The notes under the pieces were generated by a model, which saw only the letters and a list, made by a program, of their open reading frames with translations, ran no database searches and was not told the origin of the DNA. A stretch of DNA of 64,000 nt from Escherichia coli (GTDB lineage: Bacteria; Pseudomonadota; Gammaproteobacteria; Enterobacterales; Enterobacteriaceae). Below, in pieces: positions 12,091 through 14,969 of the stretch; position 1 is the first letter of the stretch; every line of letters begins with the position of its first letter. The translations under genes and the position numbers were made by a program. The stretch lies in the NCBI RefSeq assembly GCF_016026235.1, contig NZ_CP065613.1, one strand, 5' to 3'.

Positions 12091-12757
12091 AATAAAGAAA
12101 ACCTTTTAACGCCAAAACAAAAAAGTATTTCGTCGCGTAGTGTAAGCGATCACTTATTATATTTCCACAAAATTTAATCTATTTACAGTCCTGCGCGAGA
12201 TTATTTCAGCTGTTATTTTCTGAAACTCTCAGAATAATTTCAAGATTATATATTAGCCATTTTGATGAGTAATTTAGATTATTGGTGAACAGAACGGCGC
12301 TCTCTGCTCGCTAATTCCGCAAGCCTGACAAAACCGAAGTGAATAAAAATGCAATATAACAGAATAAAAGAAAACACCCCTCACTGGTGCTTTCTGCTGT
12401 TAATGTACATTTTCTGGCATAAAAAATACTGTAAATGACACGGTCACGACATACACCGAATTCTCTACGCTTATAGCGTTACCTCACCCCCAAACTTTCA
12501 TTAGTGAAATTAAAGGAAAGGTCATATCTAATTGATTTAATTGAAAATAAATCATATCGGCATGTAAAAATCCACAATGTACAAAAAACGAGCCGTTACG
12601 GAATATTTTATCTACAAAAACTGACTAAATAAAAATTTTTCACTAATTGATTAGTCATAGCCAGCGATATACGCTATGCGAAAATGCAGATGGCAATGAG
12701 ATCCACTGTTTTCATCTCCATTAACATCCCATTACGCTTTTATTAAGGAGCATTAGC

Positions 12758-13243: not shown

Positions 13244-13588
13244 TTAACTGGCTTCGCCAAATAAACCATTCAAATAACGTTCAAGCGCAACACGCGAACT
13301 AAAGCCATGCGGGATACCGTAATGCTCGTGTCGCTCGCCTGCTAAATAGAGCGGAAATTGCTGGTAATGATCGCAAGTTTTAATATCGGAAGCGGGTTCA
13401 GCCAGTGTCGAACTGCGTTCTTTTAATGTTGGATGAATTACCAGAGCGGTACGTCCCATTCGCGCTTCGCGATTAACATAGACATAATTTTCCCCACGGC
13501 GGTAACCATACGCTTTCTGGGTTACCACATCGACAGTAAAACCGACTTTTTCAAGTACGCGCGCCACCTCGTCTGGTCGTAAATACAT
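13244..13588 (-). CDS. ygaC: Uncharacterized protein YgaC
   Basis: 114-aa ORF; synteny. Confidence 0.8.
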
Positions 13589-13727
13589 ATTTGATCCTCG
13601 TTATTATCAACCGCGGGCCTACCTTACCTGATTGCGCATTCACAACGCTTTCAGAAAAGTCCATAAAGCCGCGATGAACCTCAGTTAAGAAAATTATGGT
13701 CTACACTGAAAATTACATCGAATTCTA

Positions 13728-14069
13728 ATGGGGGATCATATGTTTAACCGACCGAACCGCAACGACGTTGATGATGGCGTGCAGGATATCCAGAATGATG
13801 TCAATCAATTAGCTGACAGCCTCGAATCTGTATTGAAGTCCTGGGGCAGCGACGCCAAAGGGGAAGCTGAAGCCGCACGCAGTAAAGCTCAGGCATTGCT
13901 GAAAGAAACCAGGGCGCGAATGCATGGTCGTACTCGCGTCCAGCAAGCCGCACGCGATGCCGTTGGCTGCGCGGATTCTTTTGTTCGTGAAAGACCCTGG
14001 TGTAGTGTGGGAACTGCTGCTGCGGTAGGTATTTTTATCGGTGCACTGTTAAGCATGCGCAAATCGTAG
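13728..14069 (+). CDS. ygaM: ElaB/YqjD/YgaM-family membrane-anchored protein
   Basis: 113-aa ORF (possible true start at Met5, 13740) with C-terminal transmembrane segment. Confidence 0.8.
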   Translation: MGDHMFNRPNRNDVDDGVQDIQNDVNQLADSLESVLKSWGSDAKGEAEAARSKAQALLKETRARMHGRTRVQQAARDAVGCADSFVRERPWCSVGTAAAVGIFIGALLSMRKS

Positions 14070-14098
14070 TGCAAAAATGATAATAAATACGCGTCTTT

Positions 14099-14130
14099 GA
14101 CCCCGAAGCCTGTCTTCGGGGTTTCTTTTT
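14099..14130 (+). terminator. Rho-independent terminator after ygaM
   Basis: gaccccgaagcc-tgtc-ttcggggtt followed by tcttttt. Confidence 0.75.
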
Positions 14131-14316
14131 GCCTGGTGAATCACAAAAATCCCCCTACCCCGTCACGCTCATATCCAGGGTAATTTCGACCACTATTTGC
14201 TATATATTGTGTGGTTGAATCTTTTTTCAACTACATCTAGTATCTCTGTATCAACAGAGAGACAACCCGACGCGTATCATCGCGCCGTATCTTCATTTTA
14301 AACGGAAATACGAATC

Positions 14317-14562
14317 ATGCGCATTACTATTTACACTCGTAACGATTGCGTTCAGTGCCACGCCACCAAACGGGCGATGGAAAACCGGGGCTTTGATTTT
14401 GAAATGATTAATGTCGATCGCGTTCCTGAAGCGGCGGAAGCGTTGCGTGCTCAGGGCTTTCGTCAGTTGCCGGTAGTGATTGCAGGCGATCTTAGCTGGT
14501 CTGGTTTCCGCCCGGACATGATCAATCGTCTGCATCCAGCGCCACACGCGGCCAGTGCATGA
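14317..14562 (+). CDS. nrdH: Glutaredoxin-like protein NrdH
   Basis: 81-aa ORF with CVQC redox motif; first gene of nrdHIEF. Confidence 0.95.
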
Positions 14563-14969
14563 GCCAGCTCGTCTACTTTTCCAGCAGCTCCGAAAATACG
14601 CAGCGTTTTATCGAACGTTTAGGGCTGCCCGCGGTGCGCATCCCGCTCAATGAGCGGGAACGGATTCAGGTAGACGAGCCTTACATCCTGATCGTGCCCT
14701 CTTACGGCGGCGGCGGTACGGCTGGCGCGGTGCCACGACAGGTAATTCGCTTTTTAAACGACGAGCACAACCGGGCGTTGCTTCGCGGCGTTATTGCTTC
14801 TGGTAATCGCAACTTTGGTGAGGCGTATGGCCGCGCCGGAGATGTGATTGCCCGGAAATGCGGCGTGCCGTGGCTGTACCGTTTTGAACTCATGGGTACG
14901 CAAAGCGATATCGAAAACGTTCGTAAAGGAGTAACCGAATTTTGGCAACGACAACCGCAGAACGCCTGA
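14559..14969 (+). CDS. nrdI: Flavodoxin-like protein NrdI
   Basis: 136-aa ORF overlapping nrdH by 4 bp. Confidence 0.9.

Follow-up and report, generated by a model that had tools for sequence, protein, structure and literature searches.

Which signals does the spacer between ygaM and nrdH carry, and to which of the two genes do they belong? A preliminary description of this DNA had tentatively read two operator-like motifs there, an AT-rich Fur box soon after ygaM and an NrdR box nearer to nrdH. Its general premise, that both Fur and NrdR regulate class Ib ribonucleotide reductase (RNR) operons, is correct; what is in question is where these regulators act and what the AT-rich motif is. Published work already covers the essentials, from the NrdR operator and the control of nrdHIEF by Fur to the small RNA YgaN, and the value of the present analysis lies in a corrected map, with two NrdR boxes and with Fur at a site next to NrdR box 1 and over the nrdH start codon. 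Our explanation as a whole, which we regard as highly probable, is that the spacer would combine two unrelated parts, namely the 3' end of ygaM on the left (14070-14130, about a quarter of its length) and the control region of nrdHIEF on the right, and that the supposed Fur box is the conserved A/U-rich core of YgaN.

Layout of the spacer and the NrdR operator

The window, by which we mean the whole 64,000-nucleotide stretch analysed, is a piece of the E. coli chromosome, and its positions 13700-14600 are 100% identical to strain FDAARGOS_943. On the plus strand the ygaM coding sequence (ElaB/YgaM/YqjD family; 13740-14069, stop codon 14067-14069), as annotated by RefSeq in the 100% identical record, is followed by nrdH (14317-14562), the first gene of nrdHIEF, and then by nrdI, nrdE and nrdF. 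Between 14020 and 14345 a single base differs from K-12 MG1655, and it lies inside ygaM; the ygaM-nrdH spacer itself (14070-14316, 247 bp) is 100% identical, so experiments done with K-12 transfer directly to the window. For orthologous comparison we used 81 nrdH loci of Enterobacteriaceae, and 72 loci for the sequence that follows ygaM.

The spacer is polymorphic. About a quarter of E. coli (a contiguous ygaM-nrdH match is missing in 1,389 of 5,421 complete genomes) and many other Enterobacteriaceae have an insert of approximately 1.9 kb at the place that corresponds to 14131-14212 of the window (positions 384-2500 of locus L002). Its products are a MocR-like GntR regulator, encoded on the minus strand, and an AhpD-like carboxymuconolactone decarboxylase of 143 amino acids, encoded on the plus strand. 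Lacking the insert, the window represents the short, K-12-type allele. The two alleles differ in NrdR box 1 (TTGCTATATATTGTGT versus TTCCCATATCTTGTAT) and in the 50 bp upstream of it, and they are identical from 14213 onward.

The NrdR string of the preliminary description, TGCTATATATTGTGT, exists and falls within box 1 of a tested operator, but it had been placed at 14203-14217, 5 nt away from its real position at 14198-14212, and the second box had been overlooked, although NrdR requires both. Rozman Grinberg et al. (2025; PMC12176259) found that E. coli NrdR binds a 57-bp nrdHIEF oligonucleotide, ACTATTTGCTATATATTGTGTGGTTGAATCTTTTTTCAACTACATCTAGTATCTCTG, with a KD of 138 nM when loaded with ATP plus dATP and 187 nM with ADP-dATP, while the other nucleotide loads tested gave no binding or far weaker binding. 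This oligonucleotide is, letter for letter, positions 14192-14248 of the window. It contains box 1 (TTGCTATATATTGTGT, 14197-14212) exactly and box 2 (CAACTACATCTAGTAT, 14228-14243), whose last six bases are the putative -10 hexamer TAGTAT (14238-14243). A 2026 preprint from the Rozman Grinberg group gives C4, A6, A8, T9, T11 and G13 as the six highly conserved positions of an NrdR box, reports that NrdR leaves single boxes unbound and that the G44C change in box 2 abolishes binding, and notes that NrdR sites and the RNA polymerase site overlap. All six key positions are present in each box here, and the linker between the boxes is 15 bp (14213-14227), inside the 15-16 bp range expected of NrdR box pairs.

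The resemblance is far beyond chance. With a 15-bp linker, the 12-position two-box pattern occurs without mismatch just once in the 64 kb, at 14200-14240, and about 0.17 matches would be expected in the window even with one mismatch allowed. All 12 positions are kept in 76 of the 81 Enterobacteriaceae loci, at -118 to -122 from the ATG, and box 1 is itself conserved; the linker is 15 bp in every one of the 76 loci with both boxes intact. The spacer thus evidently holds, by exact identity to DNA with measured binding, the NrdR operator of nrdHIEF, which lies 74-120 bp upstream of the nrdH ATG.

The putative nrdH promoter and the sites occupied by Fur

Box 1 abuts, and box 2 holds, the hexamers of what we take to be the sigma-70 promoter of nrdHIEF: TTGAAT (14215-14220, plus strand) and TAGTAT, separated by 17 nt, which would place the start near 14250. 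The -35 region, TGGTTGAA, is nearly invariant in the 81 loci, and AACTACATCTAGTAT, which covers box 2 and the -10 region, is almost invariant in them. Near-invariance across genera and overlap with the NrdR boxes were our grounds for preferring this pair of hexamers; the two boxes would bracket the putative promoter, box 1 immediately before the -35 hexamer and box 2 over the -10. A promoter scan had proposed TCAACA, 18 nt, TATCAT (14251-14280), which was passed over for the conserved, NrdR-overlapping pair. A literature search for the nrdH transcription start site found nothing useful.

An IscR type II site is reported to overlap the nrdH -35 hexamer (PMC8561392), and IscR would, according to the literature, act from there. 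A simple IscR type II pattern, AxxxCCxxAxxxxxxxTAxGGxxxT, which may be imprecise, had no match near the -35 hexamer with at least 6 of its 9 positions.

Downstream of the putative start the nrdH leader contains a hairpin, CGACGCG-TATCAT-CGCGCCG (14268-14287, plus strand), which we followed through the 81 loci by explicit pair counting. It is conserved, with modest support from covariation: 80% of cells are paired as compared with 7-52% in slid controls, five of the seven pairs have changed on both sides, and the covariation score was reached by 1 of 500 shuffles. RNAalifold consensus folding did not predict this hairpin, and an Rfam scan of 13500-14600 gave just sub-threshold chance matches. 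Compensatory changes are seen, for example, as CGATG/CATCG in some Citrobacter and as GACGT/ACGTC in K. michiganensis.

The sites bound by Fur have been mapped by ChIP-exo in nine E. coli strains by Gao et al. (2023; PMC10164565, Dataset 2), a dataset that includes the peaks of Seo. Under iron-replete conditions only, MG1655 has three nrdHIEF peaks, P87-P89, at 2798593-2798627, 2798743-2798772 and 2798753-2798761, which correspond to 14164-14198, 14314-14343 and 14324-14332 of the window (+/- 1 bp). This conversion takes the MG1655 coordinates as those of an older genome version and is uncertain by about 1 bp; with it, 10 of 13 control promoters have a peak no more than 24 bp from their canonical box, the cirA peak is centred on its box (offset 1977), and the W3110 record agrees on the placement. 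The calling of ChIP-exo peaks is imperfect: at the control promoters fecA, fecI and ryhB the peaks lie 114-618 bp from the canonical box. In W3110, W, KO11, 042, BL21(DE3), ATCC 8739 and Sakai there is a single 13-bp nrdHIEF peak each, labelled intragenic and again found in iron-replete medium only (PMC10164565). Relative to the nrdH start the peaks run from -2 to +28 in MG1655, +8 to +20 in W3110, +5 to +17 in ATCC 8739 and -2 to +11 in 042. These positions were verified on the W3110, ATCC 8739 and 042 records; the Sakai coordinates, which are not reconcilable with the current record version, were left out.

The distal footprint (14164-14198, MG1655 peak P87) abuts NrdR box 1. It is reported for MG1655 only and scores just 3.1 bits on our Fur matrix, a 19-bp matrix obtained by seeded refinement on 15 Fur-controlled K-12 promoter regions, with the consensus GATAATGATAATCATTATC, which recovers the classical boxes. 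The model of Chen (2007) puts this site near zero (1.4 and -3.4 bits); some 600 bp upstream of ygaC, Vassinova and Kozyrev (2000) had predicted a site with which the footprint coincides.

The proximal site (14304-14343) lies over the nrdH ribosome-binding site and start codon, where a matrix match and the footprints 14314-14343 and 14324-14332 come together. The match, GGAAATACGAATCATGCGC (14304-14322), overlaps the start codon, scores 11.9 bits and ranks fourth in the window; the preliminary description had not mentioned it, and it is the 10.1-bit site that Chen et al. (2007) listed 728 bp upstream of ygaC. Of the 81 loci, 79 reach at least 8 bits at this position (-13), in many cases reinforced by additional Fur-like hexamers that overlap and extend into the first codons, and the site attains 16.3 bits in Phytobacter massiliensis. 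Bases -22 to -1 and the first 25 or so coding bases of nrdH (14295-14345) are almost invariant in the 81 loci, which come from many genera, and the rest of the leader is far less conserved. It is on this invariant stretch that the Fur ChIP-exo footprint and the overlapping Fur-like hexamers fall. The 8-mer Fur box of Cendra (2012), CGTAATCA, is missing from the spacer and occurs in the window just at 63750 and 25814; the nearest string to it in the spacer, ACGAATCA, lies at 14309-14316, inside the proximal site.

By these footprints, Fur with iron occupies a weak distal site that abuts box 1 and, more consistently, the region over the ribosome-binding site and start codon of nrdH; repression would presumably come from Fur bound downstream of the promoter.

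Two further observations concern Fur elsewhere in the window. The best match to the Fur matrix in the window is GTTAATGTTAATCAATATC at 1351-1369 on the minus strand (19.3 bits, 16 of 19 consensus matches), inside a ygaQ-like alpha-amylase gene that is intact in the window strain and a pseudogene in K-12; the same sequence is also present in K-12, and Gao et al. (2023) list no Fur ChIP-exo peak there. In KO11 a peak labelled "alaE, intergenic" lies 1,773 bp upstream of the nrdH peak of that strain (Gao 2023); it would map to the stpA-alaE spacer, approximately 12091-12757 of the window, where none is listed for MG1655.

The A/U-rich motif after ygaM

The AT-rich string that had been called a Fur box, AATGATAATAAATAC, is found at 14076-14090, near the 14076-14092 first given for it. 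Its likeness to a Fur box is genuine, with 13 of 19 matches to GATAATGATAATCATTATC, but weak, with one good half-site. The corresponding 19-mer, AAAAATGATAATAAATACG (14073-14091), scores 11.9 bits and ranks fifth among the 127,964 positions of the window, a marginal value at the low end of the leave-one-out scores of genuine Fur sites (8.9 to 21.7 bits). Its left heptamer, TGATAAT, is perfect and its right one, AAATACG, poor; it does not form the inverted-heptamer dyad of the ChIP-exo motif, TGAnAATnATTcTCA, of which it has 8 of the 13 specified positions, a number reached by 674 sites in the window. Placed after the ygaM stop codon and before the ygaM terminator, the motif is neither next to the nrdH promoter nor conserved with it: it stays with ygaM where the 1.9-kb insert intervenes, and in most genera no Fur-like match follows ygaM. 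In most of the genera that keep the motif it has no likeness to a Fur box, at 0.5-7.8 bits on the Fur matrix.

The ChIP-exo data point the same way. No Fur peak is present at the 3' end of ygaM (14073-14091) in the nine-strain dataset (Gao 2023), and among the entries examined for six further strains (W3110, W, 042, BL21(DE3), ATCC 8739 and Sakai) the peak at the nrdH start is the sole one between its listed neighbours; KO11 has further Fur peaks nearby (alaE, csiR-gabP). The footprinted sites, 14164-14198 and 14314-14343, thus map elsewhere in the region, the very outcome that the preliminary description had named as speaking against its assignment, and the motif lies in YgaN and travels with ygaM (below). 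It is not supported as a Fur operator of nrdHIEF. Weak binding of Fur to the motif itself would be compatible with its letters, as its score ties that of the ChIP-supported proximal site (11.9 bits each).

What, then, is the motif? Iosub et al. (2020; PMC7213987) described YgaN as a small RNA from the ygaM 3'UTR, on the evidence of Northern blotting and Hfq CLASH, with a promoter of its own near the 3' end of ygaM. For McQuail (2023) and Kavita (2021), too, the ygaM 3'UTR is a small RNA, by re-annotation of RIL-seq data and by Hfq co-immunoprecipitation. The published Northern probe, GAAGACAGGCTTCGGGGTCA, is exactly complementary to 14098-14117, and the fragment in a CLASH ChiX-ygaM chimera maps to 14090-14129. 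We place this Hfq-bound RNA of approximately 100-110 nt at 14028-14131 on the plus strand; its 3' end is the ygaM terminator, and its 5' end would follow from the published length. The intrinsic terminator (14099-14130, plus strand) has a 10-bp stem and a 5-nt loop (14099-14123) followed by a T-run, and was found by terminator scan, as an inverted repeat and by folding. The predicted fold of YgaN has -30.8 kcal/mol (z -3.25), and no Rfam family corresponds to it.

Directly 5' of the terminator, AATGATAATAAATAC and the adjoining ACGCGTC make up a conserved core of YgaN (14076-14095, plus strand). With at most one mismatch, AAATACGCGTC, preceded by GA(U/A)AA(U/C), follows ygaM just before the terminator in 20 of the 72 loci, which include Escherichia, Yokenella, Trabulsiella, Klebsiella, Raoultella and Pluralibacter. 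In 15 of these 20 the 1.9-kb insert separates ygaM from nrdH, and the motif stays with the ygaM terminator. Because it remains beside ygaM where the insert intervenes, we assign it to ygaM/YgaN and not to the nrdH promoter. Its likeness to a Fur box would stem just from one GATAAT-type half-site in the A/U-rich core of YgaN, and the motif should be annotated as YgaN and not as an operator.

Why such a core should be kept admits more than one answer. The motif might be retained just for RNA structure, as one arm of a 12-bp stem with the G-I-F-I-G codons of ygaM (14029-14040) that would stabilise the 3' ends of both the ygaM mRNA and YgaN. The minimum-free-energy fold, with its z of -3.25, pairs 14029-14040 with 14078-14090 with one bulge, each of the 20 orthologues retains 8 to 12 of the 12 pairs, and 83% of cells are paired as against 31-58% in slid controls. 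On the other hand, because the E. coli sequence itself served to define the stem, the slid-partner control is biased; both arms consist of A/U-rich, low-complexity sequence, compensatory changes are absent (0 pairs changed on both sides in the 20 orthologues), RNAalifold does not predict the stem, and its existence within YgaN hinges on the deduced 5' end. We therefore consider a purely structural role possible and do not favour it.

Less probable again is that the core of YgaN (14072-14095) acts as a seed that pairs in trans with the nrdH leader (14269-14277 and 14288-14299) and so links this RNA to class Ib RNR. The complementarity, AUACGCGUC with GACGCGUAU and AAAAUGAUAAUA with UAUCUUCAUUUU, consists of 9 perfect nucleotides and 12 nt at 83%, and the duplex, at -16.6 kcal/mol, is better than those with 99.8% of random 65-mers from the window (empirical p about 0.002), with 99.95% of dinucleotide shuffles and with all 55 initiation regions of long ORFs in the window. 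Klebsiella and Raoultella reach significance through different bases (AAGAUAACA:UGUUAUCUU; z -2.3 to -3.6), and expression of nrdHIEF is, according to the literature, RpoS-dependent by a route left unexplained. Against this, the pairing is a post hoc finding; E. albertii, Trabulsiella and the L049/L050/L073 group do not show it (z about 0); with nrdH leaders from species without YgaN, the YgaN cores pair almost as well (-11.0 versus -12.5 kcal/mol); the accessible parts of two interactome supplements contain no nrdH chimeras and name McaS and ChiX as partners of YgaN; and the predicted fold lets the core pair with ygaM codons 14029-14040 instead. Should such pairing nevertheless take place, the core could conceivably open or cover the leader hairpin at 14268-14287, in a post-transcriptional and possibly RpoS-linked layer of control that we likewise think improbable. 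It would then give YgaN its first mRNA target, to our knowledge, and might account for the unexplained RpoS dependence of class Ib RNR.

Finally, we think it very unlikely that AATGATAATAAATAC is a functional distal Fur operator that helps to repress nrdHIEF, for instance by cooperation or looping with the Fur sites downstream: although its 11.9 bits, fifth of about 128,000 positions, are a value that real sites also show in leave-one-out scoring, the 247-bp spacer holds two of the window's five best Fur matches, and Salmonella has a functional Fur box far upstream (-309), with a second one suspected there, the motif has one good half-site and no ChIP-exo peak in nine strains, lies approximately 168 bp upstream of the putative start site and upstream of a strong terminator, has its Fur-like form confined to Escherichia, and in about a quarter of E. 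coli and in many genera is some 2.1 kb from nrdH and between convergent genes. The unoccupied 19.3-bit match at 1351-1369 argues further that matrix matches alone do not predict occupancy, and the Salmonella box probably lies in an inserted gene that is absent from the window. A matrix match of about 12 bits, or even of 19 bits as at 1351-1369, thus does not predict occupancy by Fur, and we retain the assignment of the motif to YgaN.

Comparison with known systems

The distal Fur box of Salmonella is a precedent for a Fur operator far upstream of nrdHIEF. Panosa et al. (2010) placed it, in Salmonella Typhimurium, 309 bp upstream of the nrdHIEF start and validated it by mutagenesis and EMSA. 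In S. diarizonae we found a 10.4-bit Fur match at -394 to -376 from the nrdH ATG. If the start there is homologous to 14250, this match would be the -309 site, and it would lie in the AhpD-like gene of the insert. By its position, then, the Salmonella box probably belongs to the 1.9-kb insert, and, because that DNA is absent, it is not transferable to the window.

As regards YgaN (Iosub 2020), the motif of the preliminary description lies inside the published RNA, and both the Northern probe and the CLASH fragment map within 14090-14129. That GAUAAyAAAUACGCGUC is conserved across genera was observed in the present analysis; the YgaN literature that we found describes no conserved core or target.

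The Fur boxes mapped by ChIP-exo (Seo 2014; Gao 2023) and predicted earlier (Chen 2007; Vassinova and Kozyrev 2000) share with the supposed box at 14076-14090 the same spacer and the same proposed regulator. They differ from it in position, the motif being 82 bp or more from any footprint, with a terminator between it and the promoter.

Lastly, the NrdR operator described here is identical to that known for E. coli nrdHIEF (Rodionov and Gelfand 2005; Torrents 2007; Rozman Grinberg 2025), with which it shares two partially palindromic 16-bp boxes, a 15-bp linker, the six key positions of each box and the overlap with the promoter; it is the same site in another strain.
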